Origin: Candidatus Poribacteria bacterium
Lineage (GTDB): Bacteria > Poribacteria > WGA-4E > WGA-3G
Direction: 5' to 3'
NCBI GenBank assembly: GCA_965232115.1
Contig: OZ246958.1
Span: forward strand, 4,098,841-4,162,840
DNA: 64,000 nt
A program made the position numbers and the translations under genes. The first letter of the stretch is position 1, and the number at the start of each line of letters is the position of its first letter. The notes under the pieces were generated by a model. That model was not told the DNA's origin and made no database searches. It worked only from the letters and a program-made list of their open reading frames with translations. This document shows, piece by piece, positions 28,551-59,549 of this stretch.

Positions 28551-31175
28551 GTGCGATACCAATTGACTTTTTGGATCTGTTTAACCATCATCATCGGTTA
28601 TTGCTTTCCAGCAGCTGCACAAGAAGCGGCACAATCCGCAAAGCCTGCGACGCAGGCAGCACCCACAGAAAAGAAAAAAGAGTTTGAAGATTTTGCCAAA
28701 GTGATTGCGGACAGTAAAAACTACGACGGCTTTTTCAAACTATACCAGAAAAAAGAAAAACTCTACTGCGAAATTCAGCCATCACAATTAGAGCAGCCTT
28801 TTCTATGCATGATTAGCCTTTCGCGCGGCTTAGGAAGAGGATTCCTTATCTCAGGAATGATAATGGACGATTGGCTCCTCGTCTGGCGACGCGTCGGCGA
28901 CAACGTGCATCTCGTGCGAAAAAATGTACGCTACCGTGCTGAGAAGGGGACACCGACTGCCCAAGCGGTTGACTACAGTTACAGCGATTCCATCTTATTT
29001 TCTCTTAAGATTGAAAGTATCCATCCACAACGAAAGAGTCTGTTAGTGGACATTTCTCCGGTCTTTATATCTGATCTGCTACCTCTGGCGCGCAGTATTG
29101 CCTCCGACGCACGCTTCGACAAAACGCGTAGCACTTGGGGAACAGTCAAGGCATTTCCAAAGAACGTAGAGTTGAGGGTCGAAGCGGTCTACACATCGCA
29201 AAGCTATATAGAAACTGTCCCTGACAGTCGTGGCATCCAGTTGACGCTACACTATAGCCTCGCTGCACTCCCATCGAACAGCTATCAGCCGCGATTGGCT
29301 GATGACAGACTCGGACACTTCATGACGACGATCAAAGATTATTCCGCTCGCGTCAGCGAAGAACCGTTTGCGCGGTACGTCCAACGGTGGCATTTGGAGA
29401 AAGCGGATAAAGATGCGAAACTCTCGCCGCCGATGGATCCGATCATCTTCTACATTGAGAAAACAGTGCCACATCGCTTCCGTCCTTATATCCGGCAGGG
29501 CATTTTGGAATGGAACAAGGCGTTTGAAAAAATTGGATTCGCCGACGCGATTGAAGCACGGATTCAGCAAGATTACGAAGACTGGGACCCCGAAGACGCG
29601 CGGTATAACACAATCCGCTGGGTGGTTGATGCAGGGTTCGCCATTGGTCCGTCCCGCGTGAACCCTTTGACAGGGCAAATACTGGATGCCGATATCCTTA
29701 TCAGTGACGTCTTCATCAGGGGGTGGCAGCGACAATATACGACCTTCTTTGATGAGTTGGAGCATGAGCGCGATCATCCGATGGATCCCGCTTCACGCTA
29801 TCGGTGCCAGATGGCATCAGGATTAGCACATCAGGTGGGACTCATGACGAGCGTTTTGCAAGCGCGAGACCTGATCGATGAGGGGGGTGAACTCCCAGAA
29901 GAGTTTATTGGGCAAGCTCTCAAAACGTTGACGATGCACGAAGTGGGACATACACTCGGATTGCGTCACAACTTTAAAGCGAGTACGATATTTTCTCTTG
30001 ACGACATAAATAAAAAAGAGGGTGAAGCACTTATCGGCTCCGTTATGGAGTACGACGCTGTGAATATCGCGCCTGAAGGCGAGAAACAGGGACATTACTA
30101 CACACCAACAATTGGGCCTTGGGACCATTGGGTGGTCGAGTATGCATATAAACCCATTAGTGCAAGCAAACCGGAAGGCGAATTAGAAGAATTGGGCAAA
30201 ATCGCTTCCCGTTCTGCGATGCCAGAACTCACGTATGCTACGGATGAAGATGCGTCTTGGTATCGCTACCGAGATCTTGATCCATTAGTCAATCGAGGGG
30301 ACCTCGGTGCCGACCCGCTTGAGTTTGCGAAACGGCGGCGAGAGATTGTCGTCGAACTCTGGGATAAGATCGCAGATAAGGTCACAAAAGAGGGAAAAGG
30401 CTATCAACGCGTCAGACAGGCATTTGGAAGGTTGCTTTATGAACACGGCTATACCATGTACCTCGCAAGCCGTTATATCGGTGGACAGTATCACCACCGC
30501 GATCACCGCGGCGATGAAAACGGACGTTTACCGTTCGTGCCGGTCCCCGCAGCGAAACAACGCGAAGCACTCGAATTCCTCAAAGAACACGCCCTCTCAG
30601 ATAGTACTTTCGATTTCCCACCGGATCTGTTGAACAGCCTGGCAATCACCCGTTGGAGCGACTGGGGAGCCGCCAGTTGGAATTCCACACGTTTCGATTA
30701 TCCCGTCCATGATGTCATTTTGACGAATCAAACCCGTATCTTGGAACGGTTGCTCTATCCGAATGTCCTTGCGCGCGTTCAGGACACAGAACTCAAGTTC
30801 CCGAAAGGTGAAGATGCGTTCACACTCCCAGAACTCTTTTCTGGCATTACAGATGCGGTTTGGGTGGACCTTGAACGGAATCTCGGAGAAATGCAGTGGT
30901 CGAATACAGAGGCGTTTATCTCCAGTTTCCGGCGCGGTTTGCAACGTGAACACCTCAAGCAACTCATCAAACTGGTGTTGGATGCCGACAGCGGGACACC
31001 TGAGGATGCGAGATCGCTTGCACGCCTTCATCTTGAGCAAATCAATACTCGGATACAACAGGTGCTTCAAAATGCACAAGGAAGACTTGACGATTATAGC
31101 GTGGCGCACCTTGAAGAGTCACAAGTTCGAGTTACGAAGGCGTTGGATGCCAACTTCCAAGTCGAGGAACGCTAA
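28551..31175 (+). CDS. secreted zinc metalloprotease, DUF4953/DUF5117-like (HEXXH), paralog 1
   Basis: Signal peptide. LTMHEVGHTLGLRHNF zincin motif. 874 aa. ~85% identical to the next gene. Confidence 0.7.
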   Translation: MRYQLTFWICLTIIIGYCFPAAAQEAAQSAKPATQAAPTEKKKEFEDFAKVIADSKNYDGFFKLYQKKEKLYCEIQPSQLEQPFLCMISLSRGLGRGFLISGMIMDDWLLVWRRVGDNVHLVRKNVRYRAEKGTPTAQAVDYSYSDSILFSLKIESIHPQRKSLLVDISPVFISDLLPLARSIASDARFDKTRSTWGTVKAFPKNVELRVEAVYTSQSYIETVPDSRGIQLTLHYSLAALPSNSYQPRLADDRLGHFMTTIKDYSARVSEEPFARYVQRWHLEKADKDAKLSPPMDPIIFYIEKTVPHRFRPYIRQGILEWNKAFEKIGFADAIEARIQQDYEDWDPEDARYNTIRWVVDAGFAIGPSRVNPLTGQILDADILISDVFIRGWQRQYTTFFDELEHERDHPMDPASRYRCQMASGLAHQVGLMTSVLQARDLIDEGGELPEEFIGQALKTLTMHEVGHTLGLRHNFKASTIFSLDDINKKEGEALIGSVMEYDAVNIAPEGEKQGHYYTPTIGPWDHWVVEYAYKPISASKPEGELEELGKIASRSAMPELTYATDEDASWYRYRDLDPLVNRGDLGADPLEFAKRRREIVVELWDKIADKVTKEGKGYQRVRQAFGRLLYEHGYTMYLASRYIGGQYHHRDHRGDENGRLPFVPVPAAKQREALEFLKEHALSDSTFDFPPDLLNSLAITRWSDWGAASWNSTRFDYPVHDVILTNQTRILERLLYPNVLARVQDTELKFPKGEDAFTLPELFSGITDAVWVDLERNLGEMQWSNTEAFISSFRRGLQREHLKQLIKLVLDADSGTPEDARSLARLHLEQINTRIQQVLQNAQGRLDDYSVAHLEESQVRVTKALDANFQVEER

Positions 31176-31293: not shown

Positions 31294-33882
31294 ATGCGGC
31301 ATCTATTGACATTTTGGATCTGTCTCATCACAATAAGCGGTTACTGTATTTCAGTATCTGCACAAGAAACAACAGAAAAAAAACAAGAGTTTACAGATTT
31401 CGCAAAAGTGATTGAAGATAGTAAAAACTACGACGGCTTCTTCAAACTATACCAGAAAAAAGAAAAACTCTATTGTGAAATCCAACCCTCACAATTGGAT
31501 CAGCCTTTTCTATGCATGACCAGTCTTGCACGCGGCTTAGCGAGAGGACGGCTTATCTCAGGAATAATAATGGATGAATGGTTGCTCGTTTGGCGGCGCG
31601 TTGGCGATAACGTGCATCTCGTGCGAAAAAATGTGCGATACCGTGCTGAAAAGGGAACACCGACTGCCCAAGCAGTTGACTACAGTTACAGCGACTCTGT
31701 ATTATTTTCTCTTAAGATTGAAAGTGTACATCCACAACGAAAGAGTCTATTGGTCGATATTTCTCCGGTTTTTATGTCCGATTTGCCGCCACTGGCACGT
31801 CGTATTGCCGCTGATGCCCGCTTTGATAAAACACGCAGCACTTGGGGAACAATCAAGGTGTTTCCAAAGAACGTCGAATTGAGAGTCAAAGCGGTCTATA
31901 CATCGCAAAGTTACATAGAAACCGTCCCCGACAGTCGTGGCATCCAGTTGACGGTGCATTACAGCCTCGCTGCACTTCCATCCAACAACTATCAACCCCG
32001 ACCGGCTGACGACAGGCTTGGACACTTCATGACAACGATCAAAGACTATTCGGCTCAAGTTAGCGAGGAACCCTTCGCTCGTTACGTCAATCGCTGGCAT
32101 CTGGAGAAAGCCGACAAGGATGCAAAACTTTCACCCCCAAAAGATCCGATCATCTTCTACATTGAAAAAACCGTACCGCACCGCTTCCGTCCTTACATCC
32201 GGCAGGGGATCCTCGAATGGAACAAGGCGTTTGAAAAGGCGGGTTTTGTCGATGCGATTGAAGCACGCATTCAGCAGGACTATGAGGACTGGGACCCCGA
32301 AGACGCACGGTATAACACGATCCGTTGGGTGGTTGACGCAGGATTCGCCACCGGTCCCTCTCGCGTGAATCCACTGACAGGACAGATACTGGATGCCGAC
32401 ATCCTTATTACCGATGGTTTCATCAGGTCTTGGCGGCGAGAATATACAACGTTCTTTGATGAGTTAGCGCATGAGCGTGATCATCCGATGGACCCATCTT
32501 CACAATTTCAGTGTCAGATGGGATCTGGGTTGGTGCATCAGATGGGGTTCATGGCAAGTGTCTTGGATGCGCGGGATCTGACTGGCGAAGGCGGTGAACT
32601 CCCAGAAGAGTTTCTCGGAGAGGCACTCAAAGCACTGACGATGCATGAAGTGGGACATACATTGGGATTGCGCCATAACTTTAAAGCGAGTACAATTTTC
32701 TCTCTCGACGACTTGAACAAAAAGAATGGAGAAGCCATCCTCGGTTCTGTCATGGAATACGATGCTGTGAACATCGCACCCGAAGGTGAAAAACAAGGGC
32801 ATTACTATACGCCGACAATCGGCCCCTGGGACTACTGGGTGATTGAATATGCCTATAAACCCACTAATGCGAGCAAGCCAGAAGATGAATTAGAGGCGTT
32901 GCGCAAAATCGCTACCCGTGCGCCAACGCCGGAACTGACGTATGCTACAGATAGCGATGCTTATGGGTATCAACATCGAGATATTGACCCATTGGTCAAC
33001 CGCTGGGACCTCGGCGACGATCCACTTGAATTTGCCAAACAACGTCGTGAGATTGTTGTTGGACTCTGGGATAAGATTGCAAACAAAGTTACAAAAGAAG
33101 GCGAAGGCTATCAACGAACCAGGCGGGCTTTCCGTACACTCATTGTTGAACACGGTTATACCATGTACCTCGCAAGTCGTTACATCGGTGGGCAGTACCA
33201 CCACCGCGATCATCGCGGCGATGAAAATGGACGGTTGCCCTTCGTGCCGGTCCCCGCAGCGAAACAACGCGAAGCACTCGAATTCCTCAAAGAACACGCC
33301 CTCTCGGACAAAGCCTTCAATTTCCCGCCGGACTTGCTTAACAGTCTGGCAATCACCCGTTGGAGCGATTGGGGAGCCGCCAGTTGGGATTCTACCCGTT
33401 TCGATTACCCGGTACATGAGATCATTCTGCGCTATCAAAATCGCATTCTGGAACGCTTGCTCTACCCGAACGTTCTCGCACGGATTCAAGACACAGAGTT
33501 AAAGTTCCCTAAAGGTGCGGATGCGTTCACACTCCCTGAACTTTTTTCAGGCATTACGGATGCGGTCTGGACAGAATTGGATCGGAATATAGGAGAAAAG
33601 CAGTGGTCGAATACGGACGCGTTCATCTCCAGTTTCCGGCGCGGTTTACAACGCGAACATCTCAAGCGGCTTATCAAACTGGTATTAGATGCCGACAGTG
33701 GCACGCCTGAGGACGCAAGATCCCTCGCACGTCGCCATCTCGGGCAAATTAACACTCGCATACAGCGCGTGCTCCAAACCGCGCAAGGCAGACTTAACGA
33801 TTATAGCTTGGCACACCTCCAAGAGTCTCAAGTCCGAATTGCGAAGGCGTTAGATGCCAACTTCCAAGTCGAGGAACGCTAA
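31294..33882 (+). CDS. secreted zinc metalloprotease, DUF4953/DUF5117-like (HEXXH), paralog 2
   Basis: AAGGAG RBS, signal peptide, LTMHEVGHTLGLRHNF. 862 aa. Confidence 0.7.
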   Translation: MRHLLTFWICLITISGYCISVSAQETTEKKQEFTDFAKVIEDSKNYDGFFKLYQKKEKLYCEIQPSQLDQPFLCMTSLARGLARGRLISGIIMDEWLLVWRRVGDNVHLVRKNVRYRAEKGTPTAQAVDYSYSDSVLFSLKIESVHPQRKSLLVDISPVFMSDLPPLARRIAADARFDKTRSTWGTIKVFPKNVELRVKAVYTSQSYIETVPDSRGIQLTVHYSLAALPSNNYQPRPADDRLGHFMTTIKDYSAQVSEEPFARYVNRWHLEKADKDAKLSPPKDPIIFYIEKTVPHRFRPYIRQGILEWNKAFEKAGFVDAIEARIQQDYEDWDPEDARYNTIRWVVDAGFATGPSRVNPLTGQILDADILITDGFIRSWRREYTTFFDELAHERDHPMDPSSQFQCQMGSGLVHQMGFMASVLDARDLTGEGGELPEEFLGEALKALTMHEVGHTLGLRHNFKASTIFSLDDLNKKNGEAILGSVMEYDAVNIAPEGEKQGHYYTPTIGPWDYWVIEYAYKPTNASKPEDELEALRKIATRAPTPELTYATDSDAYGYQHRDIDPLVNRWDLGDDPLEFAKQRREIVVGLWDKIANKVTKEGEGYQRTRRAFRTLIVEHGYTMYLASRYIGGQYHHRDHRGDENGRLPFVPVPAAKQREALEFLKEHALSDKAFNFPPDLLNSLAITRWSDWGAASWDSTRFDYPVHEIILRYQNRILERLLYPNVLARIQDTELKFPKGADAFTLPELFSGITDAVWTELDRNIGEKQWSNTDAFISSFRRGLQREHLKRLIKLVLDADSGTPEDARSLARRHLGQINTRIQRVLQTAQGRLNDYSLAHLQESQVRIAKALDANFQVEER

Positions 33883-35833: not shown

Positions 35834-36143
35834 GCGCGGTGAAATCTGGTTAGCCGACCTTGGCGTGGCGGCAAAGACACGCCCTGTTCTGGTACTCAGC
35901 GTCCCTTTTTCAGATTCTGATTACGCGCTAATTACTGTCGTACCGCACACGACAAGTTCAAGAAGGTCCAATTTTGAAGTAAACCTTTCTGTGGCTGCTT
36001 TAAGACCCGGTGCTTTCAATGTTCAAGGACTGATGGCTGTCCCACCCGCCAAGTTCATTCGCAAACTCGGAGCATTACGGTCTGCGCAAATGGAACAGGT
36101 CGCGGCTAGAGTAAAAAAGTGGCTCGGATTTTCATCCAATTAA
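35826..36143 (+). CDS. PemK/MazF-family type II toxin (endoribonuclease)
   Basis: Hallmark N-terminus PKRGEIWLADLG...KTRPVLVLS. 105 aa. Confidence 0.8.
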   Translation: MPKRGEIWLADLGVAAKTRPVLVLSVPFSDSDYALITVVPHTTSSRRSNFEVNLSVAALRPGAFNVQGLMAVPPAKFIRKLGALRSAQMEQVAARVKKWLGFSSN

Positions 36144-37183
36144 CCAGCAGCCCCGATCTCAACTTCCTGCAAAACTGCTGCTGCCCGTTGTGCCAACTCA
36201 GTTGTAGTATCTCGCTTGAGAGCCCGATTTAAGTGTAAGATGGCGCGTTCATCTCCATCTCTTGCGAGTTCCAAAGCCTCCTCAAATCCTTTGTTTCCGT
36301 AACTGAAATCCCTTGCGATAACCGTCAAGTCAAGATCCTTCCAATAATACTGCAGTTCATCAGATTTCCAATTCTCATAGACATGTTCCCACGTAAGGGA
36401 GTTGAAAATATTCAGGTGCGGTTCAAGCATGTGCTCAGCGATCGGGTCATCGACAGCCTGATAGCGGTTGTCGAGCGACACGCGAAGTCGATCTTCAGTC
36501 AAATTCGGCAGTGCCTTATGGATCGTCAAAGCTGGGAAGATGAGCGTATCGCCAACTTCATAGTTCGTGGAGTGCCATTCACCCGACAATTCGTCCTCAT
36601 TAACGCAGAGACTGCCAGCACCGAGCGAAAAGTGGTGTTCCATGACCTTGTTGATCTTATGTGATCCGGGTAGGACTGCTAAGCCACCTAACTCAATCGG
36701 ACAATCTCCGACGGGTGCCCAACAGGTATAGGTCTGGAAATTGCCTTGGAAGTGGACGAAATCTTGATGGATCGGGGTTGTATGTGCCGTGTACTTCGGG
36801 AACCAGAGGCGCGCAATCTTTTGCGGATGCGGTAGCACCTCTCTACCGACAATCTTTTCCACCATATCGACGACTTCGTGCCAGTGACCGGAACGGTGGA
36901 ACGCTTCTAATTTATAGACTTCATGGTACACGTCTGTATATTCGGGATCGCCTTCGGTACATTGGGTCGAAATATCAGCGATGCCGTCCATCGGGTCGGT
37001 CCCCGCGACGAGCCAACCGCCCTTCTGCATTGTCGTTAGCATCTCTCGCCGTAACGCCCAGAGTTTGTCGGGATCTTGTAGGCACTTGAAGAAGAGATAC
37101 CCTTCTTCTGAGATCCGGTGCCGCAACTCTTCTGGATCGTTCATCGCATCGTTGGATATGCGAAGTTCTTTTATTTTTTCCAT
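36140..37183 (-). CDS. phytanoyl-CoA dioxygenase (PhyH) family protein
   Basis: PIHQDFVHF motif. The stop overlaps the toxin gene end on the opposite strand. Confidence 0.7.
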   Translation of the reverse strand: MEKIKELRISNDAMNDPEELRHRISEEGYLFFKCLQDPDKLWALRREMLTTMQKGGWLVAGTDPMDGIADISTQCTEGDPEYTDVYHEVYKLEAFHRSGHWHEVVDMVEKIVGREVLPHPQKIARLWFPKYTAHTTPIHQDFVHFQGNFQTYTCWAPVGDCPIELGGLAVLPGSHKINKVMEHHFSLGAGSLCVNEDELSGEWHSTNYEVGDTLIFPALTIHKALPNLTEDRLRVSLDNRYQAVDDPIAEHMLEPHLNIFNSLTWEHVYENWKSDELQYYWKDLDLTVIARDFSYGNKGFEEALELARDGDERAILHLNRALKRDTTTELAQRAAAVLQEVEIGAAG

Positions 37184-37295
37184 CTGAATTTCTCCTCGCA
37201 TCTATTCGTGTCGGTCTCCGTAGATGGGGTACTTCTCTTTTTTCCGTATTCATAGTATAACACATACAAAACGAAAGATTCAATTTTTTTCTTTC

Positions 37296-44804: not shown

Positions 44805-45911
44805 TTACACCCGAATTGGATGAAACGGTTCCAGTGACAATGAAGGTTTCCCAGTCGTGAGGAGTTCCGCTATAACCTGCCCAGTAATGGGTGCGAGAAG
44901 AATCCCGTTTTTGAAATGTCCGGATGCCAAGACGACGTTGTCGTATCCGGGTAGATAGCCGAGAAGGGGCCCTTTTCTGGCGTACGGACGCAAGCCTGCC
45001 CACGTTTGGACAAAGGTAGCCTGTGCCAACTGAGGTGCAATAGCGACCGCTGCATCAATCATCTGTTTAGTGCCCTCAACCGTTGTGCTTTTGTCATAGC
45101 CGACGAATTCGACTGTTGCACCGAGCAGGACCTTGCCGTCTGCTCTCGGAACGATGTAGATGCCGAGTCCATCAATTGTCCGCTCGAAAAGCGGTGGCAT
45201 CGCTTTAATGAGGACTATTTGTCCCTTCGCGGGTCCAATCTGCATTGGAACACCAAGGTCCGCAGTAAGTTCACCTGCCCAACATCCGTTAGCAATCACA
45301 AATGTGTCAGCGTATAAGGTTTCACCGTTCACAACAACCCCAACAACACGGTTACTTTCTCGGACAAAGCCGGTGACAGGATTTCCCAATTGGAATTTTG
45401 CCCCAAATTTCGCTGCACCCTTTGCGAGTGCGGCCACCATCTTCGGGTTGCGTACCTGTGCATCTTCGGGAAACAGCACCCCACCGACAATTGATCGTGA
45501 AAGTGCTGGCTCTAATTCCCACGCTTGCTCGGATGTCAAGACTTCGGTTGAAAAACCGTTTTTTACACGGCGGTCCGCGAGACCGATGAGTCCTGCTGCT
45601 TCAGTTGGATTGAAGAATACTGAGAGCGTTCCAGCCCGAATGAATTCAATATCTATCTGCGTCTCTGCGCGGAGTTCTTCCGCTAACGCCGGGTAGAGGG
45701 CAAGACTGGCGCGACAGAGTTCTGGATATGGCTCATGTGTTGAGGCGTGTGAGGTGAGAATCCCTGCACCTGCCCATGAGGCTTCTGTGCCGACAGCAGC
45801 AGCTTTGTCAATGAGAAGCGGTTGGATATCTCGTTTAGCGAGGTTGTAAGCGATAGCACACCCGATAATACCCCCGCCGATAACGATGACATCCGCATGA
45901 TTTCGACTCAA
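44805..45911 (-). CDS. FAD-dependent oxidoreductase, glycine-oxidase (ThiO)/DAO family
   Basis: VIVIGGGIIGCAIAY dinucleotide-binding motif. 368 aa. Confidence 0.65.
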   Translation of the reverse strand: MSRNHADVIVIGGGIIGCAIAYNLAKRDIQPLLIDKAAAVGTEASWAGAGILTSHASTHEPYPELCRASLALYPALAEELRAETQIDIEFIRAGTLSVFFNPTEAAGLIGLADRRVKNGFSTEVLTSEQAWELEPALSRSIVGGVLFPEDAQVRNPKMVAALAKGAAKFGAKFQLGNPVTGFVRESNRVVGVVVNGETLYADTFVIANGCWAGELTADLGVPMQIGPAKGQIVLIKAMPPLFERTIDGLGIYIVPRADGKVLLGATVEFVGYDKSTTVEGTKQMIDAAVAIAPQLAQATFVQTWAGLRPYARKGPLLGYLPGYDNVVLASGHFKNGILLAPITGQVIAELLTTGKPSLSLEPFHPIRV

Positions 45912-46306
45912 GTTAGTCCTCCGATTTGGGGAAGTGTTGTATTCGGAAAGAAACTCGCAAAGACGACAATAATTAATAGTTTAACACATTATGTGCCCGT
46001 TTTCAATTGGACTTGGCTTCAGTTTTTGGACGATATATGTTTCCTTTTAAGGAAAACGCCTTCGTAAAATACTAACAACCAAAAACTAATAACCAAAAAC
46101 CACTCAACTGTTTATACATATTTTCGGATGCACTTTTCTGAGACACAGAGAACCTCGAAAAAACAGCGTTATGAGATAGACTTTAGATTATGGTTTGAAA
46201 TTTCAACGAATTTCGTGTATAATTATCATAGACAGACCAAAGTGAACTATCTCAAATTCGGTGATGGGAAAAATAAAAAGGCACGCCTAATGTGAAAGGT
46301 TTTTAA

Positions 46307-46594
46307 ATGATCCTTGGAAAAGTTACAGGGACAGTCGTCGCGACGCAGAAAGATGAAAAATTGATTGGCAGTAAGTTGATGGTTGTCCAAGACGTAGATT
46401 TAAATGGCGAAGTCGACCGAAAATATACGGTCGCTGTGGATGCGGTCGGTGCGGGTATTGGTGAGATTGTGCTTGTTGCAACGGGTAGCTCAGCACGGCA
46501 GACCGATGTGACCAGCAACAAACCGGTTGATGCCGTCATCATGGCAATTGTTGATACCATAGAAGTTTGCGGAAAAGTGCGGTATCACAAGTAG
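46307..46594 (+). CDS. EutN/CcmL/PduN-family bacterial-microcompartment vertex protein homolog
   Basis: MILGKVTGTVVATQKDEKLIGSKLMVV...VAVDAVGAGIGEIVLVATGSSAR matches the EutN/CcmL pentamer family. 95 aa. Confidence 0.65.
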   Translation: MILGKVTGTVVATQKDEKLIGSKLMVVQDVDLNGEVDRKYTVAVDAVGAGIGEIVLVATGSSARQTDVTSNKPVDAVIMAIVDTIEVCGKVRYHK

Positions 46595-46597
46595 TAA

Positions 46598-47197
46598 ATG
46601 GAACGAGAGATGGAACGGGAACGTATCCGCGCCGAAACCCTCCAACGTCGCGATGGACTCGCGCAAGAAGTCCGATCGGTACTTAGCCGAAGGATCATCA
46701 ACTTCCTTGTCAGTTGGATACAGAACGAAGATTTCGATACTGTAATGCTCTATCTGAGCATGAAAAGTGAAGTGGAAACGTTCAGTTTGTTGGATATCTT
46801 GCTTCACCAAGAGAAGATAGTCTGTGCACCTGTAGTAGATACACATCAGTTAGAACTCACGCCTCGCCAGATTCGGGACCCCAAAACAGAACTCGTTCAG
46901 CACCGTTACGGTCTGTTAGAACCGAATGCGGCCTGCCCAATTTTCCCAGTCTCGCAGCTGCAGCTCATCATTGTCCCCGGTATCGCTTTCGATGCTAACG
47001 GCTATCGCCTCGGATACGGTAAGGGTTTCTATGACAGGTTCCTCGCGAAGTGTCCAGACGCTGTTAGAGTAGGATTGGCGTATCAGGTGCAGATTGTCGA
47101 AGATACATGCCCGCAAACGTGGGACCTCCCCGTACACTACATTTTCACAGAGAAGGGTATAATAGCTGTCAGCGATCAGCCATCAGCAGTCAGTTAA
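46598..47197 (+). CDS. 5-formyltetrahydrofolate cyclo-ligase
   Basis: C-terminal PGIAFDANGYRLGYGKGFYDRFL is the 5-FCL family signature. Confidence 0.75.
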   Translation: MEREMERERIRAETLQRRDGLAQEVRSVLSRRIINFLVSWIQNEDFDTVMLYLSMKSEVETFSLLDILLHQEKIVCAPVVDTHQLELTPRQIRDPKTELVQHRYGLLEPNAACPIFPVSQLQLIIVPGIAFDANGYRLGYGKGFYDRFLAKCPDAVRVGLAYQVQIVEDTCPQTWDLPVHYIFTEKGIIAVSDQPSAVS

Positions 47198-47371: not shown

Positions 47372-47788
47372 TTATTTATTTCCAGGATCCACCATAGCAT
47401 CAACAAAGGGTCTGAGTTTCTCTATAGTCTTCGGTCCGACACCTTTGACATTTTGGAGGGCATCCACACTGGTGAAATCACCGTGCTGTGTGCGATGGTC
47501 AATAATTCTTTCCGCCAGCCGCTCACCGATGTTAGGAAGGGTTTGGAGTTCTTCCGTAGAGGCAGTATTGATATTGAGAAGCACGGGTTTGTTCGATATA
47601 GCAGATTTTGTTGTGCGATCTTGCGGGTGTTCCGTGTTCGGCACAGCAATTAGATCCGGTTCTCCGAGAAATATGGCTGGTGCGAACCGCCGCACTCCCC
47701 AAAAGCCAGTTCCAGCCAAAATCAGTATCACGAGTAAAGTCACCGCTTTCCAATAATGGCGTTCAAGAGCATCTTCCACGCTATTCAT
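47372..47788 (-). CDS. comEA: ComEA-family helix-hairpin-helix DNA-binding protein
   Basis: TM anchor, then INTASTEELQTLPNIGERLAERII...VKGVGPKTIEKL (tandem HhH). Confidence 0.75.
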   Translation of the reverse strand: MNSVEDALERHYWKAVTLLVILILAGTGFWGVRRFAPAIFLGEPDLIAVPNTEHPQDRTTKSAISNKPVLLNINTASTEELQTLPNIGERLAERIIDHRTQHGDFTSVDALQNVKGVGPKTIEKLRPFVDAMVDPGNK

Positions 47789-49463
47789 CTCCGCTTTCCT
47801 CAAGAAGAAGTATCTGATTCGCAGCGACACCGCTGATTAACTGTTCGACCCCGTTTTGCCAACGGACTATAATACTGTCTACGTGTTCATAATCACCTAT
47901 TCCGAAATGAAGCGTGAGATCCCGTTGTGAGAGATAACCATCTCCACTCTGCACCTCACGTACCTGTGTAAGTTCGCCGGTCGTTACCTTAACGCGGGTG
48001 CCAATTGCATCCGTAGAACCGTTCGTTGCGATTAAGCGAATTTGTAGATAGTTTTTTCGGTTGCCACCGTCGTTACGGAGCAGTCGAGGGGGCGCGTTGG
48101 AATTTGTTACAACAATATCAATATCGCCATCTAAATCGTAGTCTGCAAAAGTAGCCCCACGGCTTACGTCTTCCAACTTCATACCAGCACCGAGGGCTTC
48201 AGAGGATTCAGTAAAAGTACCGTCCCAGTTATTTTTGAAAAAGAGATTGCGCTGCCCGTAGGTGCCTTCCTGTCCGAGTTCAGCGAGATTCTCGTGCAGA
48301 TGCCCGTTAGCGACGAAAAGGTCTTGATATCCATCGTTATCATAATCAATGAAGGCGGTTGCCCAACCGAGGTACGGGTAGGTAATCTGTGCCGTTTTTG
48401 TGGTGGTAGTTGCGTCTGTGAAAAAACCGTCTGCATCGTTACGATAGAGGGTATTCGTCTGGTCAGCATAATTGGTGACAGTGAGATCAAACCATCCATC
48501 GTTATTCCAATCGCCAAATGCGGTTCCCATACCGTTTTCAGGGACACCGTCTTCGCTGAGTGCAACGCCAACCATGAAACCGACTTCCTCAAAAGTGCCA
48601 TCACCGTTATTGCGGTAGAAAAGATTCTCTGTAGAATCATTCGCGACGTAGATATCAAGTGCCCCGTCGTTATCGTAGTCGCCCCAGACAACGCCTAACC
48701 CCTTGCCAGTCGTATTGTAAATTCCGGCAGATTTGGTAACGTCAGTAAACGTGCCATCACCATTATTGCGATAAAGCGTATCGGATTGGGCGGGGAAGTT
48801 ATCGGGTTCACAATAGGCGCGGATCCCCTTTTCTTTCAGTCCACACCATGGATTCTCAGCGATATCAAAAACGATATAGTTAACGACGTAGAGATCAAGG
48901 TCGCCATCACGGTCATAATCAGCGAACGCACAACTGGTACTCCAACGCGGCTCGGTCACGCCTGCGGTTTCGGCGACATCCGTGAACGTGCCGTCCCCGT
49001 TGTTGCGATAGAGCCGATTCGTGCCGTAGTTCGTGACATAAAGATCCAGGTGACCGTCGTTATTGTAGTCGCCGACAGCACATCCGTGTCCGTAGCCGGT
49101 ATCTCCGACTCCGGCTATTTTGGTAACATCCGTAAAGGCACCATCGCCGTTATTGCGATAGAGCCGATTGGTCGGGATTTCTTCAGAGACATATCCAGGG
49201 AGCGGTGCACCATCAACGAAATACAAATCGGCATCACCATCAGCATCGTAATCAAAAAAAGCCGCACCCGAACCGAGTGTCTCCATAAAATATTTCCGTC
49301 CACTCCGTCCGTCTGTGTGCTTCCAGTGGATACCCGCCTCCTGTGTTACATCAACAAACTGAATACCTGTGTTCGATGCTGCAGGTGAAGTTGCATCACT
49401 TGGTGCAAAAATCGCTATGAGGACAAGTAGACAGATATTTATACCTTTATTTCGTCTTTTCAT
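47781..49463 (-). CDS. secreted FG-GAP/VCBS-repeat protein (CRTAC1/ASPIC-UnbV-like)
   Basis: Signal peptide. At least 6 repeats of the YRNNGDGTFTDVT and DYDNDG type. Confidence 0.75.
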   Translation of the reverse strand: MKRRNKGINICLLVLIAIFAPSDATSPAASNTGIQFVDVTQEAGIHWKHTDGRSGRKYFMETLGSGAAFFDYDADGDADLYFVDGAPLPGYVSEEIPTNRLYRNNGDGAFTDVTKIAGVGDTGYGHGCAVGDYNNDGHLDLYVTNYGTNRLYRNNGDGTFTDVAETAGVTEPRWSTSCAFADYDRDGDLDLYVVNYIVFDIAENPWCGLKEKGIRAYCEPDNFPAQSDTLYRNNGDGTFTDVTKSAGIYNTTGKGLGVVWGDYDNDGALDIYVANDSTENLFYRNNGDGTFEEVGFMVGVALSEDGVPENGMGTAFGDWNNDGWFDLTVTNYADQTNTLYRNDADGFFTDATTTTKTAQITYPYLGWATAFIDYDNDGYQDLFVANGHLHENLAELGQEGTYGQRNLFFKNNWDGTFTESSEALGAGMKLEDVSRGATFADYDLDGDIDIVVTNSNAPPRLLRNDGGNRKNYLQIRLIATNGSTDAIGTRVKVTTGELTQVREVQSGDGYLSQRDLTLHFGIGDYEHVDSIIVRWQNGVEQLISGVAANQILLLEESGDE

Positions 49464-54783: not shown

Positions 54784-56316
54784 TCACATCCTTTGGTACT
54801 CTCCAATAATTACCTCTACAAGGCTCTCTATTGAAGCTTCCTTTGCAATCACGTTAACCTGCACGCCATATTTCACTGCCGTCTTTTGCGTTGTGGGACC
54901 AATCACGGCGACCTTGACATCAGCGAGTAATACTTCAGGAGCATGTGTCGGGAACATCTCCAAGAAGTTTGTAACCGTTGAGGAACTGGTGAACGTGACG
55001 AAATTAATTCTGCCGCTCAAGAGGTCGGCTTCAATTTCATCTCGCCTATTATCGCCATCGCTTGCTACTTTGACGGTATCGTAGAGAGGTACATCATCGA
55101 CGCGTGCCCCTTTCTCACGCAAACCGTTGGGTAGGTCGGCAGTGGCAATTTTCGCGCGCGGGAGGAGGATCTTCTTCTCGTTGACATCTGTCATTTCAGC
55201 AGCGATAGCACTTCCATGGGAGTGCGATGGAACAAAATCGGGATGAATGCCGATGTGGTTAAGAGCATTTACTGTTTTTGGTCCAACGGCACAGATTTTG
55301 TTTGTGCTGAATGCGCGAGCATCCTTCCCATTTTCGCGTAAGCGTTCATAGAAGATTTCCACGGCGTTAACACTTGTAAAGATAATCCAATCGTATCCTT
55401 TCGGAGAAGGTATGTCCTCGTTCTCAATAGGTTGAATCTCTATGGTAGGGAATTGGATAACTTCGGCACCGTTTGCCTCCAAAAGTTCAGCGAACCCGCT
55501 CGCTTGGGCTCGGGCACGTGTAACAAGTATTCGTTTTCCGAAAAGTGGTTTGGTGTCAAACCATCGGAGTTGTTCACGGAGCCGGTTCACTTCACCGACG
55601 ACGATAACTGCCGGACTTTCCAGTTGGGCTGCTTCAACCTTTTGAACAATATCATCCAAGGTGCCTTGGACGACCTGCTGTTGTGGTGTGGTCCCCACAC
55701 GGACCAAACTCACAGGGGTTTGCGGGTCTCTGCCGTGTGTTATAAGCCGTTCAGCAATCTGATGCAGATGCGCAACACCCATGTAAACGACGAGCGTATC
55801 TACCGCTGTGGCAAGGTCCTCCCAATTGATGTTTGAATCCGGACGTAATGCGGCGGAATGCCCTGTAACAAACGCTACTGACGAAGCGTAGTCGCGATGT
55901 GTGACCGGAATACCCGCATAAGCAGATGCGGCAATCGCAGAAGTGATACCCGGAACCACCTCAAACGGAACACCCGCCTCGGTGAGAGCGACTGCCTCTT
56001 CGCCACCCCTTCCGAAGATATAAGGGTCTCCGCCTTTGAGACGCACGACCACTTTACCGGCTTTCGCATGTTCAACAAGCATCTGATTGAGTTCAGTTTG
56101 GCGCGTCGCTCGGATTCTTGGGTCGGGTGCTCGGATTTTCTCGGTGTGCGCCGGGCAGTGTTCCAAGAGGGCATCGTTCAGCAATAAATCATAGATGACA
56201 ACATCTGCGCGTTGGAGACACTCTACACCTTTGAGTGTGATAAGTTTTTGATCGCCTGGACCCGCACCTACAATATAAACAATGCCGGTATCCGATTTAT
56301 CTGAAGATGCGTTCAT
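54784..56316 (-). CDS. cobA-hemD: bifunctional uroporphyrinogen-III C-methyltransferase / uroporphyrinogen-III synthase (CobA-HemD fusion)
   Basis: N-terminal SUMT signature VYIVGAGPGDQKLITLKGVECLQRADVVIYD. The C-terminal ~250 aa are HemD-like. Confidence 0.8.
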   Translation of the reverse strand: MNASSDKSDTGIVYIVGAGPGDQKLITLKGVECLQRADVVIYDLLLNDALLEHCPAHTEKIRAPDPRIRATRQTELNQMLVEHAKAGKVVVRLKGGDPYIFGRGGEEAVALTEAGVPFEVVPGITSAIAASAYAGIPVTHRDYASSVAFVTGHSAALRPDSNINWEDLATAVDTLVVYMGVAHLHQIAERLITHGRDPQTPVSLVRVGTTPQQQVVQGTLDDIVQKVEAAQLESPAVIVVGEVNRLREQLRWFDTKPLFGKRILVTRARAQASGFAELLEANGAEVIQFPTIEIQPIENEDIPSPKGYDWIIFTSVNAVEIFYERLRENGKDARAFSTNKICAVGPKTVNALNHIGIHPDFVPSHSHGSAIAAEMTDVNEKKILLPRAKIATADLPNGLREKGARVDDVPLYDTVKVASDGDNRRDEIEADLLSGRINFVTFTSSSTVTNFLEMFPTHAPEVLLADVKVAVIGPTTQKTAVKYGVQVNVIAKEASIESLVEVIIGEYQRM

Positions 56317-56327
56317 CAGGAGTTCCC

Positions 56328-57242
56328 CTATAACCTCAACAGTTCAGTTGCACCACTACTTTGAAGTTTTTCGGCTACGATTTCGCCCAAGTGTTTTGCT
56401 GCATCAGGTATCCCGGTGGCAGTCTCTACAATACGATGGATTCCCTCCGGGTGACACACAGTGGCAATAAGCGAAAGTTCACCATCAACATGCCAAGCAT
56501 GTGCACCGACAGGGATTTGGCATCCACCGCCGAGGCTTTCCAATACAGCCCTTTCAGCAGTAGCCTCAGCAACCGTCTGCGAATCGTTAAGAGGCGAGAG
56601 CAATGCTTTGATAGCACTATCACCTTCTCGTGCTTCAATCGCAAGGGCACCCTGTCCGACAGCGGGGACCATCCGTTCTATATCAAAATATTGCGTGATA
56701 ATTTCGGGGTCAAGGAGGCGTTTGATACCGGCTGCAGCGAGTATAATGCCGTCAAGGTCAGTTTCACGAAGCTTGCGTAACCGCGTATCGACGTTCCCTC
56801 GGACATCAACGACCCGCAGATTTGGACGCATACCCAGAAGTTGCGCCTTCCGACGTGGACTTGTAGTGCCGATCTTTGCACCACCGAGCAAATCTTCCAA
56901 GGGGAACCCCGTGGCAGTGATAAGCACATCTCGGGGATCCTCTCGCTCTGGAATAGCTGCGATGCAGAGACCTTGTGGCAACTCTGTCGGAAGATCCTTC
57001 AAACTATGGACTGCGATGTCAATGTCCCGCGTCAAGAGCGCGTCTTCTATCTCCTTGGTAAATACCCCTTTACCGAGCCCAAGGAGTGAACCCTCTGGAT
57101 TGGTGTCCCCAGTGGTTTTGATGACCTCTATATGGACCTCAAGATTCGGAAAATGGGTTTCCAATTGATTTCTAACAAATTGTGCTTGCCAGCGCGCGAG
57201 TTGACTACCACGTGTGCCGATTGTAAGCGAGTTCTGCATCAA
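56328..57242 (-). CDS. hemC: hydroxymethylbilane synthase (porphobilinogen deaminase)
   Basis: IGTRGSQLARWQA and the dipyrromethane-cofactor region GGGCQIPVGA. Confidence 0.9.
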   Translation of the reverse strand: MMQNSLTIGTRGSQLARWQAQFVRNQLETHFPNLEVHIEVIKTTGDTNPEGSLLGLGKGVFTKEIEDALLTRDIDIAVHSLKDLPTELPQGLCIAAIPEREDPRDVLITATGFPLEDLLGGAKIGTTSPRRKAQLLGMRPNLRVVDVRGNVDTRLRKLRETDLDGIILAAAGIKRLLDPEIITQYFDIERMVPAVGQGALAIEAREGDSAIKALLSPLNDSQTVAEATAERAVLESLGGGCQIPVGAHAWHVDGELSLIATVCHPEGIHRIVETATGIPDAAKHLGEIVAEKLQSSGATELLRL

Positions 57243-57291
57243 AGTTCCTTGTGACTTAAAGGAGTGTGTAATGACCGAGGTATAGATTTAC

Positions 57292-58593
57292 CTACAACTC
57301 CGAATTATCATCGTTAACATCCAGTTCAAACAGTTCTTGCAAGGCTTGGACATATTGGGCATGGTCGGCATCACCATCGTTGACAGCACATCGGAGATTT
57401 TGCATGGGATGATGGAGCAGTTTTTTAACGATCGCCTGCGTCATAGAGGTGATAGCAGCCTCCTGCTGATCGGAGAGTGTTGTTTTGTAGAAGCACGCTT
57501 GCAATTCGCTATCAGCGATCTGCCGAAACTGCTGATGGATTGCCTTAATTGTAGGATTAACCTGAAAGACTTGTAATTGGTTGTAGAACCCTTTGGCTTC
57601 TTCAGTGACGATCCGTTCTGCCTGGACGGCTTCTTGCTGTCTGTCTTGGAGGTTGGAGGCAACAACAGCTTCAAGGTCATCAATATTATAGAGAAAAGCG
57701 TGGTCAATCTTACTCACATCTGGATCAATATCGCGCGGAACTGCGATGTCAATGAGAAACATATACCGATGCTTACGTTTTCGCATGAGGTCGGCGAGGG
57801 GTTTCCGCTTGATAAGGTACTCAGGGGCATTGGTAGAACTAATAACAATGTCGGCATCAATAAGGAAACCGAGGTCGCTCTCATAAGCAAGAGGTGTCCC
57901 GTTAAACTTCTCGGCGACTTTGACGGCGCGCGTATAAGTGCGGTTTGCAACGATGACCTTGGAAACACCATTCGCAACAAGATGCTTCGCAGTCAGTTCA
58001 CTCATCTCACCGGCACCGAGAATCGCGACAGTTTTGCCTTCAAGCGTATTAAAAATTTTCTTGGCGAGTTCAACAGCGGCGTAACTAATAGAGACAGCAC
58101 CCGTAGTGATTGCTGTCTCGGAACGGACGCGTTTACCAACACTAAAGGCTTTGGTGAAAAGCCGATTGAGGATAGAGCCTACAGCACCCGATGAACGCGA
58201 AAGGTCGTAAGCGGTTTTGATTTGCCCCAATATTTGGGACTCACCGACGACCATAGAATCAAGGCTCGATGTCACTCTGAAGAGATGCTGGATCGTCCCA
58301 AGGTTATGGCGGAGATAGCACCATTTCTTAAGCGATTCGACGCGCATCTGATGGAATTGGGCAAGAAACTCAAGGAGCATTTTGGCGGCTGCATCAGCAT
58401 TTCGAATTGCATGCGCAACCGCATAAAGTTCCACCCGGTTACAGGTAGAGAGAATCACTGCCTCTTGAACCTGATCAGATTCGCACAAGCGTTGGAGGGA
58501 TTCAATAAGTTGTTCTTCGGAAAACGCCAACTTCTCCCTAAACTCAATGGGAGCAACATGATGGCTGGTTCCGACGGAGACAAGCTGGTTCAT
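57292..58593 (-). CDS. hemA: glutamyl-tRNA reductase
   Basis: ILSTCNRVELY catalytic-Cys motif, GESQILGQIK, NADPH domain ILGAGEMSE. Confidence 0.9.
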   Translation of the reverse strand: MNQLVSVGTSHHVAPIEFREKLAFSEEQLIESLQRLCESDQVQEAVILSTCNRVELYAVAHAIRNADAAAKMLLEFLAQFHQMRVESLKKWCYLRHNLGTIQHLFRVTSSLDSMVVGESQILGQIKTAYDLSRSSGAVGSILNRLFTKAFSVGKRVRSETAITTGAVSISYAAVELAKKIFNTLEGKTVAILGAGEMSELTAKHLVANGVSKVIVANRTYTRAVKVAEKFNGTPLAYESDLGFLIDADIVISSTNAPEYLIKRKPLADLMRKRKHRYMFLIDIAVPRDIDPDVSKIDHAFLYNIDDLEAVVASNLQDRQQEAVQAERIVTEEAKGFYNQLQVFQVNPTIKAIHQQFRQIADSELQACFYKTTLSDQQEAAITSMTQAIVKKLLHHPMQNLRCAVNDGDADHAQYVQALQELFELDVNDDNSEL

Positions 58594-58706
58594 TTTTTTT
58601 CAAGAAAAGTTAAACAAGGTGAACACGCGTACATTTGGTAAATTATATCACATATTAGGGGTCGTGTCAAATTTAGAATTCAGTCTATCCACACACCTGC
58701 TTTACA

Positions 58707-59549
58707 TTACCGGTACGTATGCATGCTGTCTAAAAAGAGGTCTACACCAACATAGGTACAGAGAACAGCAACAAACCCGAGGATTGCGGCGTAGGCGGCT
58801 CTGCGTCCGTGCCATCCCCAAAATTGGCGGATACCGATTTGCGCCACATAGATAAGCCACGTCACCAGTGTAGAGATTACCTTCGCATCAATCCATCTCC
58901 ACGGCACATCTCGGATATATTGCGTCCAGAGACTTCCAACAATAACTCCCATTGTGAGCAGAATTACGCCGAGAATCGTGCAGCGATATCCAAGTTCATC
59001 GGAAATACCGAGAGAGGGTAGAAGGTTGTCAAGAAGAGCATCCGCTTTTCTACGAATTTTCCGCTCTGCTATCAGATACATCAACCCAAATCCAAAAGCA
59101 GCAATGAATGCGGCGTAGGCAAGAAAAATAAGTGAGGTATGCGCCAAAAGCCAGTAGTTTTGCAAGGGTTCGGGGAGGGCAGCGGCGTGCGTTGCGAAAC
59201 TATATGAAATGAGTATCGCAATAAAAGCAACCGGCATGACGAAGCTGCCGAGTGTGCGGAGCTGCGTTAAACGCACAATGAGTAGATAAATCAGCGTGAT
59301 CGCCCATGCGAAAAAAGCAATGGAGTCTGTCCAGTGTGTCATCGGAAAATGCCCCTGCAATAGCCACCAAAGTGCGATAAAAACAGTCAAAAAGGCGAAA
59401 CCGATGATGGTACACCAAAAAGCAATTCGTTCGATAGTTGGGCGAATTACGGAGGCTTCAGTCCGATTGCCGATAGCCAGCGAAAGGGTGTGAAAAATGC
59501 TTGCTGCTAAGTATATTAAAAGGGTGACGAGAAACAGAAAATTTATCAT
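58707..59549 (-). CDS. cytochrome c assembly protein-family (CcsA/HemX-like) membrane protein
   Basis: 8 TM helices. Trp-rich segment (WTQYIRDVPWRWIDAKV). Sits immediately upstream of hemA, like B. subtilis hemX. Confidence 0.55.
   Translation of the reverse strand: MINFLFLVTLLIYLAASIFHTLSLAIGNRTEASVIRPTIERIAFWCTIIGFAFLTVFIALWWLLQGHFPMTHWTDSIAFFAWAITLIYLLIVRLTQLRTLGSFVMPVAFIAILISYSFATHAAALPEPLQNYWLLAHTSLIFLAYAAFIAAFGFGLMYLIAERKIRRKADALLDNLLPSLGISDELGYRCTILGVILLTMGVIVGSLWTQYIRDVPWRWIDAKVISTLVTWLIYVAQIGIRQFWGWHGRRAAYAAILGFVAVLCTYVGVDLFLDSMHTYR

Follow-up and report, generated by a model that had tools for sequence, protein, structure and literature searches.

The window, by which we mean the whole 64-kb stretch of DNA that was analysed, carries a short gene for a BMC-P protein of the EutN/CcmL family, hereafter also EutN. 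It is followed on the same strand by the gene for 5-formyltetrahydrofolate cyclo-ligase (MTHFS), with which it forms a bicistronic unit, and is flanked upstream by a divergent gene for a glycine oxidase, ThiO. The EutN-MTHFS unit is bounded at its 3′ end by a ComEA-like gene on the opposite strand. The open reading frame and its translation had been reported in an earlier reading of the letters alone (the sequence-only reading), and both are present as quoted there. The features of the locus are listed in Table 1.

Table 1. Genes and predicted expression signals at the BMC-P locus, in window coordinates
Feature	Position	Strand	Basis and remarks
Glycine oxidase ThiO, divergent	44805..45911	-	TIGR02352, 276 bits (cut-off 250.8)
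Predicted near-consensus sigma70-type promoter	46195..46223	+	TTGAAA, 17-nt spacer, TATAAT; 11/12 consensus matches; ~84 nt upstream of EutN start
Ribosome-binding site GAAAGG	46294..46299	+	7 nt upstream of EutN ATG; GAAAGG/AAAGG in 18/18 aligned upstream regions
BMC-P (EutN/CcmL family) vertex-pentamer gene, 95 aa	46307..46594	+	ATG start; PF03319; "green-clade" paralog in the BMC-P triplet of Poribacteria FRAG2; corresponds to the shell gene of Kamke "BMC group C"
5-formyltetrahydrofolate cyclo-ligase (MTHFS), second gene of bicistronic unit	46598..47197	+	PF01812, 128.8 bits; TIGR02727, 162 bits (cut-off 84.9)
ComEA-like helix-hairpin-helix protein, convergent with MTHFS	47372..47830	-	PF12836 HHH_3, 82 bits

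The sequence-only reading had named a ThiO-like oxidase upstream and MTHFS downstream, and both proteins score above their TIGRFAM cut-offs. On the strength of its TIGR02727 equivalog score, the second gene is predicted to encode a canonical MTHFS. It had been placed 3 nt downstream of EutN, which is correct for the first ATG; the N-terminus that is conserved among orthologs (MERER...) starts at the second ATG, at 46610, which is probably the true start and widens the gap to 15 nt. The PF01812 domain spans residues 8-185 of the 199 in MTHFS. An encapsulation peptide was considered for both MTHFS and ThiO and rejected, as the Pfam and TIGRFAM domains span nearly the whole of each protein and leave no room for one.

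The product of the first gene had been assigned to the EutN/PduN/CcmL family along its full length. This assignment holds: PF03319 (EutN_CcmL) is matched over profile positions 1-83 of 83 with 105.5 bits (E=2e-30), against a gathering cut-off of 25 bits. The best NCBIfam equivalogs are beta-carboxysome CcmL (NF053795, 104.5 bits) and ethanolamine-utilisation EutN (NF011992, 74.8 bits). We rejected both, as the scores lie below the curated cut-offs of 125 and 118 bits, and the window contains neither a CcmK/M/N or RuBisCO homolog nor eut genes. Because both equivalogs score below their cut-offs, the protein is best described as a generic BMC-P that is a component of neither a carboxysome nor an EUT compartment. 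The closest sequence match in the PDB is the shell BMC-P of Haliangium ochraceum (PDB: 5V74), with 99 bits over residues 1-95 and 53/95 identical residues (56%). An AlphaFold2 model of the monomer, computed from a 35-sequence alignment, reached a pLDDT of 93. In a Foldseek search, the model superposed on CcmL (PDB: 4N8X/2QW7), on a pentamer of a synthetic beta-carboxysome shell (PDB: 6OWF) and on 5V74 with a TM-score of 0.93 and an rmsd of 1.3 Å, and all 47 significant PDB matches were BMC-P chains. The predicted fold is the BMC-P beta-barrel. The matches include E. coli EutN (PDB: 2Z9H/2HD3), which crystallised as a hexamer, so the fold by itself does not establish the oligomeric state.

The loop G48-A-G-I-G-E53 is invariant in 62 orthologs, and G48, A49, G50 and E53 are also invariant in 35 wider homologs. 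Across both sets, the motifs GAGIGE, GSSARQT and IVD are invariant or nearly so. The GAGxGE loop is documented in the literature as the contact between the pentamer and the BMC-H hexamer. By family, fold and contact motif, the window gene thus encodes a canonical BMC-P subunit. The 62 Poribacteria orthologs are all exactly 95 codons long, with no indels and no stop codons, and their median pairwise dN/dS is 0.057 at a dS of about 1.2. Purifying selection on the BMC-P ortholog is very strong. Relative to the window proteins, median identity is 91% for EutN, 80% for ThiO, 69% for ComEA and 64% for MTHFS, and the satellite pentamer ranks among the most strongly constrained genes of its neighbourhood. 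The exact window BMC-P protein was found on 11 public contigs, two of them NCBI MAGs, and the best match among species representatives is a 98% identical ortholog on the closed Ca. Poribacteria MAG chromosome OZ242310.1.

A single sigma70 promoter is predicted for EutN-MTHFS from its match to the consensus and from its conservation, the promoter block TTGAAATTTCAGnGAATTTCGTGTATAAT being conserved across clade-A Poribacteria species in an alignment of upstream regions. Because an NtrC-type regulator adjoins EutN in clade B, a sigma54 promoter was also sought, and no conserved GG-N10-GC was present within 220 nt upstream of EutN in 62 loci. A riboswitch (TPP for ThiO or THF for MTHFS) was rejected, as Rfam returned only a chance miRNA match (E=0.21) over 45700-46700. 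A structured leader was likewise rejected, with folding no better than that of shuffled sequence (z=+0.83). No terminator was found between EutN and MTHFS.

Published metatranscriptomes bear on expression of the locus. Data S1 of Jahn 2016, in which three Xestospongia metatranscriptomes were mapped to SAG 3G, lists both the EutN ortholog (contig_39.40, our locus L033) and BMC-H (contig_3.4) as expressed. Mean FPKM values there are 299.6 for the EutN ortholog, 306.7 for the adjacent MTHFS and 1047 for BMC-H; the other two PF03319 genes of SAG 3G are absent from the upper part of that sorted table. The co-transcription with MTHFS suggested by the sequence-only reading is supported by the gap of 3-15 nt, the lack of a terminator, the one conserved promoter and, in Data S1, the equal FPKM values of the two genes. 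The BMC-H:BMC-P mRNA ratio that these values give, ~3.5:1, is low for a large shell and counts against a simple shell picture.

Three tests, namely two sets of tblastn searches and Pfam scans of the open reading frames, agree with the earlier observation that nothing else in the 64 kb is BMC-like. The classical BMC-H proteins PduA, CcmK2, EutM and CsoS1A gave no match in the window by tblastn. The complete SPU set from the related locus L071 (BMC-H, BMC-T, PduL, AckA, AldDH, PduS, RpiB, DeoC, TIM and two BMC-P paralogs) matched only the BMC-P gene itself. Pfam scans of ~50 further window ORFs found no PF00936, PF00171 or PF06130. What these scans did find were PhyH dioxygenases, ankyrin repeats, GNATs, GFO/IDH/MocA oxidoreductases, Met-zincins and genes of a haem-biosynthesis cluster. 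We considered and rejected two metabolic settings known from relatives. For an SPU metabolosome locus, recognised by DeoC (PF01791) and RpiB (PF02502) alongside AldDH and shell genes, the DeoC, RpiB, AldDH, PduL, PduS and AckA proteins of L071 are unmatched in the window and in the Poribacteria flanks. For a class II aldolase partner of the kind seen at the pelagic locus L070, neither the window nor the flanks of sponge Poribacteria contain a homolog.

To place the locus in a wider context, we compared 61 Poribacteria-type loci in which EutN is 83-98% identical, about 30 of them on closed chromosomes of 4-6.7 Mb. None of the 61 has a BMC-H gene, a second BMC-P gene or SPU cargo within ±10 kb. 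MTHFS follows EutN directly in 36 loci and after an insert of 2-4 kb in a further 20; four loci lack MTHFS over at least 4.5 kb downstream of EutN, and one contig is too short to judge. The insert starts 14-15 nt after the EutN stop codon and encodes a histidine kinase (HK) with a 6-TM PilS-type domain, followed by a sigma54-dependent response regulator (RR) of the NtrC type. This HK-RR pair is still present in all four of the loci that lack MTHFS. ThiO lies divergently upstream in 51 of the 61 loci, and its conservation as a neighbour is confined to clades A and B of the sponge Poribacteria. The gene is absent from the deeper lineages L091-L098 and L102, and probably stands outside the functional unit.

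Those deeper lineages carry isolated homologs that are 67-75% identical to the window BMC-P. In L091-93, EutN is followed by two small ORFs, HK, RR, MTHFS and then the dcw cluster. In L094-95, EutN, HK, RR and MTHFS run in one direction, with an oppositely oriented VWA gene upstream, and the same four genes in L097 (Tara Oceans) are followed by an oppositely oriented PhyH gene. EutN is directly followed by MTHFS both in L096, next to a divergent RadC gene, and in L098, downstream of a co-oriented SerRS gene. L102 has EutN, HK and RR with no MTHFS, and in L070, a pelagic MAG, EutN is followed by a class II aldolase-like gene. The EutN-(HK-RR)-MTHFS unit is thus kept across the whole isolated clade (67-98% identity) despite unrelated flanks. 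Orthologs at 66% identity or less sit in canonical metabolosome loci (L071 and L099-L101). Their gene orders are BMC-H, TIM, PduL, AckA, BMC-P, AldDH, PduS, BMC-T, RpiB, BMC-P, SH3, BMC-P and DeoC in L071; PduL, two BMC-H, BMC-P, AldDH, PduS, BMC-T, two BMC-P and a class II aldolase in L099; and a CsoS1D-like BMC-T, BMC-H and BMC-P in L100 and L101, followed by AldDH in L101. Outgroup BMC-H proteins are only ~70% identical to each other.

The sequence-only reading had proposed a phylogeny of the vertex protein. A neighbour-joining tree of BMC-P paralogs resolves three triplet clades and places the window protein with the AldDH-adjacent paralog and H. ochraceum 5V74, apart from the other two paralog clades. 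In our trees this grouping corresponds to the green major clade, a colour label that we take from Sutter et al. 2021. In a second tree, the isolated genes form one clade (bootstrap 72/100) that is sister to the canonical loci, and each of its two sub-branches holds arrangements with and without HK-RR. The most parsimonious history is one fragmentation event that produced BMC-P-HK-RR-MTHFS, followed by at least three losses of HK-RR, that in the window clade included, and by at least three losses or relocations of MTHFS.

The locus is already known, as group C of Kamke et al. 2014 and as FRAG2 of Sutter et al. 2021. Kamke et al. (PLoS One 9:e87353, PMC3909097) defined the poribacterial "BMC groups A-C". 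Their group C in SAG 3G consists of ThiO (POR3G_02617), a PF03319 protein (02618), MTHFS (02619) and ComEA (02620), which is the gene order of the window, with the window ComEA-like gene in the position of POR3G_02620; in SAG 4E, a two-component system lies between the shell gene and MTHFS. SAG 3G has one PF00936 and three PF03319 genes. Group A is BMC-H next to PduL, and group B consists of two more BMC-P paralogs at a third site, so that in Poribacteria BMC-H (with PduL) and two further BMC-P genes are reported at other sites (Kamke 2014, PMC3909097; FRAG2 in Sutter 2021). All Poribacteria loci were termed "satellite-like" by Axen et al. 2014. In the catalogue of Sutter et al. 2021 (Nat Commun 12:3809, Suppl. 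Data 2), FRAG2 comprises a triplet of BMC-P together with two BMC-H at separate sites, and 21 of its 33 loci are from Poribacteria. Their BMC-P tree labels a 95-aa Poribacteria protein "FRAG2 (sat), fadedGreen1" and places it beside SPU1/SPU7/MIC7 pentamers. The observation is therefore a rediscovery: the BMC-P/MTHFS pair appeared in print in 2014 and entered the catalogue as FRAG2 in 2021.

The present locus nevertheless differs from these descriptions in several respects. It comes from another Poribacteria species than SAG WGA-3G, one whose protein is 98% identical to that of MAG OZ242310.1, while the BMC-P of L033, which is SAG 3G contig POR3G_contig_39.40, is 89% identical to the window protein. 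Kamke et al. compared two SAGs and described the region as "not as well conserved" (PMC3909097), whereas the arrangement is seen here in 61 species and in deeper lineages. The FRAG2 catalogue shares with our set the dominance of Poribacteria and the 95-aa BMC-P satellite entry, but the MTHFS and HK-RR partners are unmentioned in it, and PF01812 is absent from its supplements. What we add to the known picture is the phylum-wide BMC-P-(two-component system)-MTHFS operon, the constraint on the gene, its clade placement, the predicted promoter and the lack of shell or cargo genes within 10 kb across 61 species. The satellite pentamer stands first in its operon throughout the lineage, followed by a sigma54 two-component system, by MTHFS or by both, and it derives from the AldDH-adjacent pentamer of a sugar-phosphate/aldolase-type metabolosome.

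The sequence-only reading had called the gene an orphan and offered two explanations. The gene does stand alone in the window; it is, however, not a true orphan but the satellite vertex protein of a dispersed system. The first explanation, a BMC locus split across the genome, is supported, the partner genes being known from published Poribacteria genomes; the second, a satellite vertex protein with a different role, found no positive support. The data thus support a satellite vertex gene of the dispersed FRAG2 system, for which the partner shell genes are taken from the literature on other Poribacteria genomes. Family, fold, motif, constraint, orthology, synteny and promoter motif were computed here, and the partner genes and in situ expression come from published work.

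We consider it probable that the product of the window gene serves as the main vertex pentamer of a FRAG2 compartment whose genes are dispersed, with BMC-H (beside PduL) and two accessory pentamers encoded elsewhere, and that the gene is expressed constitutively together with MTHFS. Five copies of BMC-P would form a truncated-pyramid pentamer that caps the shell vertices. The facets would be built from BMC-H hexamers encoded next to PduL (Kamke group A), contacted through the invariant G48-A-G-I-G-E53 loop, and the two further paralogs at the third site (group B) would complete the dispersed FRAG2 type. The green clade supplies the sole pentamer in loci with a single BMC-P and includes the pentamer of the solved Haliangium shell. 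In the ancestor, the BMC-P gene probably belonged to a metabolosome locus with BMC-H, BMC-P and AldDH. This locus would have fragmented once, at the base of the lineage, leaving BMC-P at the head of an operon with a PilS-like HK, a sigma54-dependent RR, which we infer to be a likely BMC regulator, and MTHFS. In the window clade, kinase and regulator would later have been deleted, and the resulting EutN-MTHFS unit would be transcribed from the one conserved near-consensus sigma70 promoter. MTHFS itself is most likely an operon passenger with a housekeeping role in folate recycling, and not BMC cargo.

Assembly of a closed shell in vivo is a further step that we infer. Polyhedral bodies are unreported in Poribacteria, and BMC-H was localised as a ring at the cell membrane, not as cytoplasmic particles (Jahn 2016). 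Because no encapsulation peptides and few enzymes were found in the FRAG types (Sutter 2021), a closed, cargo-filled shell stays conjecture. The locus touches on the question of what FRAG-type compartments do and whether they form closed shells at all, and it offers handles on FRAG2 function, namely a promoter, the regulator and a defined set of shell genes; the classification is unchanged.

Two other readings would take the gene out of a dispersed system altogether. It might be an ordinary component of a complete BMC locus just beyond the window, which stops 17 kb downstream of the gene, and the related closed chromosomes were covered to ±10 kb. This is very improbable: there is no BMC gene in the 46 kb upstream or the 17 kb downstream, nor within ±10 kb in the 61 Poribacteria loci, and at the window gene these distances exceed both limits by which a main locus is defined, 12 ORFs (Sutter 2021) and 20 kb between shell genes (Axen 2014). 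In published Poribacteria genomes, moreover, BMC-H and BMC-P lie on different contigs or sites. Alternatively, the gene might be a relic of a lost metabolosome with no current function, "lack of function" having been raised as a possibility by Kamke 2014 (PMC3909097). The absence of shell and cargo partners nearby in the window would fit such a relic, as would the one or two BMC-H genes reported per Poribacteria genome, the transposases near some BMC groups (both Kamke 2014, PMC3909097) and the lack of particles by EM (Jahn 2016). Yet a gene without function would hardly combine the dN/dS of 0.057, 62 species free of indels and stop codons and invariant interface motifs with a conserved promoter and ribosome-binding site, and in the Jahn 2016 data the in situ transcript level of its ortholog reaches 0.38x the housekeeping mean. 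The selection and expression data rule out a decaying relic, and we regard a functionless gene as scarcely conceivable.

The dispersed FRAG2 reading also has to be weighed against one in which MTHFS, the two-component system or both are functionally linked to BMC-P. In that case, folate/one-carbon or glycine-derived aldehyde chemistry would involve the FRAG2 compartment, or BMC-P alone, or BMC-P would act with the PilS-like membrane kinase; MTHFS could be an ancillary cofactor-recycling enzyme, as PduL/PduS are in classical BMCs. Speaking for such a link, the EutN-(HK-RR)-MTHFS unit is kept while both flanks change (ThiO/ComEA, the dcw cluster, VWA, RadC, SerRS, PhyH), and MTHFS beside BMC-P through at least seven unrelated flank contexts is more persistence than a pure passenger model predicts. 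Furthermore, clades A and B have upstream of the unit ThiO, a glycine oxidase whose product is an aldehyde/imine, and immediately after the SPU loci L071/L074/L076 comes SHMT, which generates 5-formyl-THF. The immunolocalisation of BMC-H at the membrane (Jahn 2016) would suit a kinase with a 6-TM PilS-type domain. Against it, MTHFS lacks an extension at either terminus that might act as an encapsulation peptide and evolves fast (median identity 64%), whereas BMC-P is nearly frozen. At least three lineages have the unit without MTHFS and at least three others without HK-RR, the pelagic relative L070 has a class II aldolase-like gene instead, and MTHFS occurs in no canonical relative's locus. 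In the literature searched, no connection between MTHFS and BMCs was found, and operons can be conserved as units even with unrelated genes. On balance, we consider a functional link unlikely. The strongest form of the idea appears quite improbable, namely that BMC-P-(PilS-like HK-sigma54 RR)-MTHFS represents a new functional class of fragmented microcompartment that ties folate/one-carbon or glycine-derived aldehyde metabolism to the shell, or that a shell-independent green BMC-P is coupled to a membrane sensor kinase, although the latter role is consistent with the membrane-ring localisation of Poribacteria BMC-H.

Comparison with characterised systems places the satellite pentamer of the dispersed FRAG2 type among known shell components. 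The pentamer of the H. ochraceum model shell (PDB: 5V74, 6MZX) has the same length, 56% identity over 95 residues, the GAGxGE/GSSARQT/IVD motifs, the same clade and a TM-score of 0.93. It differs in its gene setting, which is either a main locus shared with BMC-H/T and AldDH or a satellite locus shared with an aldolase, and its assembly into a T=9 shell was shown experimentally, whereas the Poribacteria BMC-P is known from sequence and model. The nearest orthologs outside Poribacteria are the AldDH-adjacent BMC-P proteins of SPU- and aldolase-type loci, with 55-66% identity and membership in the same triplet clade. There, BMC-H, BMC-P and AldDH are accompanied by PduL, PduS, BMC-T, and DeoC/RpiB or a class II aldolase, none of which lies near the window gene. 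A further parallel is provided by the cyanobacterial satellite loci for CcmK3/K4. These encode BMC-H hexamers of a carboxysome whose main locus is intact, whereas the Poribacteria satellite encodes a pentamer and has no main locus at all; the two resemble each other in that shell genes lie obligately distal from a main locus, where separate regulation is possible.

In most deep lineages of Poribacteria, the isolated BMC-P gene is immediately followed at its 3′ side by genes encoding a PilS-like histidine kinase (6-TM, PAS) and then a sigma54-dependent NtrC-type response regulator. This pair is probably the regulator of FRAG2, the fragmented microcompartment type of Poribacteria. A further sigma54 two-component system adjoins the tandem BMC-P site (“group B”) described by Kamke 2014 (PMC3909097). 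The kinase–regulator pair is deleted in the clade of the window. A clade-A-like Poribacteria genome (L022) carries a response regulator alone, without the kinase, between EutN and MTHFS; it is 53% identical to the regulator of clade B, in which both genes follow EutN. The two-component system may have been lost by way of such an intermediate.

The MTHFS open reading frame of the window contains two in-frame ATG codons, at 46598 and 46610 (window 46598-46612). Because the N-terminus beginning at the second ATG, MERER, is kept in orthologs, and because gene callers chose the 195-aa form on related contigs, EutN and MTHFS are in truth probably separated by 15 nt rather than by 3.

Other genes adjoin microcompartment genes in relatives. 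Three SPU-type loci (L071, L074, and L076) close with DeoC and, directly 3′ of it, a serine hydroxymethyltransferase (SHMT) gene, the only adjacency of a folate enzyme to a microcompartment gene observed besides MTHFS. SHMT produces 5-formyl-THF, the substrate of MTHFS, and can also cleave threonine to acetaldehyde; its adjacency to the SPU-type loci is possibly coincidental. In the pelagic “Ca. Poribacteria” MAG SP142 (L070), the gene that comes after the BMC-P ortholog (69% identity) encodes a 348-aa protein, in which an N-terminal extension of ~160 aa precedes a class II aldolase domain at the C-terminus (PF00596, E=6e-10). Microcompartments of the ACI, PVM, and HO types have a PF00596 aldolase as their signature enzyme, and the canonical relative L099 likewise ends in one. 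The aldolase-like gene may be a clue to the chemistry that the Poribacteria compartment originally carried out. In a Sumerlaeota MAG (L089), an isolated BMC-P of the green clade, which includes the window protein, lies 15 nt beyond the end of the gene for lumazine synthase (RibH, PF00885), an enzyme that itself forms capsids built from pentamers. Riboflavin-synthesis genes also adjoin the group B BMC-P pair of Poribacteria (Kamke 2014, PMC3909097), and the adjacency of BMC-P to a riboflavin gene is therefore recurrent, in two phyla.

Elsewhere, the window encodes an ankyrin-repeat protein, like the PhyH genes below a hallmark of sponge symbionts, and a haem/sirohaem biosynthesis cluster. The two Met-zincin proteins are tandem paralogs and probably secreted metalloproteases. 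PhyH genes number four per 64 kb in the window, with further ones at related loci, which matches the reported expansion of PhyH in Poribacteria, where no other domain family is as abundant (Kamke 2014, PMC3909097).

Coordinates of features in the window and at related loci
Locus	Position	Strand	Feature
Window	2943-3806		Ankyrin-repeat protein
Window	4864-5619		PhyH (phytanoyl-CoA dioxygenase) family
Window	5676-6443		PhyH family
Window	26986-27741		PhyH family
Window	28551-31175	+	DUF5118 + DUF5117 + DUF4953 (Met-zincin), ~870 aa
Window	31294-33882	+	DUF5118 + DUF5117 + DUF4953 (Met-zincin), ~870 aa
Window	36140-37201		PhyH family
Window	54784-59549	-	Haem/sirohaem cluster (whole)
Window	54784-56316	-	Cluster: fused uroporphyrinogen-III methyltransferase/synthase
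Window	56328-57242	-	Cluster: porphobilinogen deaminase
Window	57292-58593	-	Cluster: glutamyl-tRNA reductase
Window	58707-59549	-	Cluster: cytochrome c assembly protein
L057	10303-13020		Kinase–regulator pair after BMC-P
L091	10844-13908		Kinase–regulator pair after BMC-P
L094	10332-13489		Kinase–regulator pair after BMC-P
L097	657-3763		Kinase–regulator pair after BMC-P
L102	6343-9458		Kinase–regulator pair after BMC-P
L022	10633-11967		Response regulator alone
L070	10298-11344		348-aa aldolase-domain protein
L071	17033-18277		SHMT
L089	1042-1902		RibH and BMC-P
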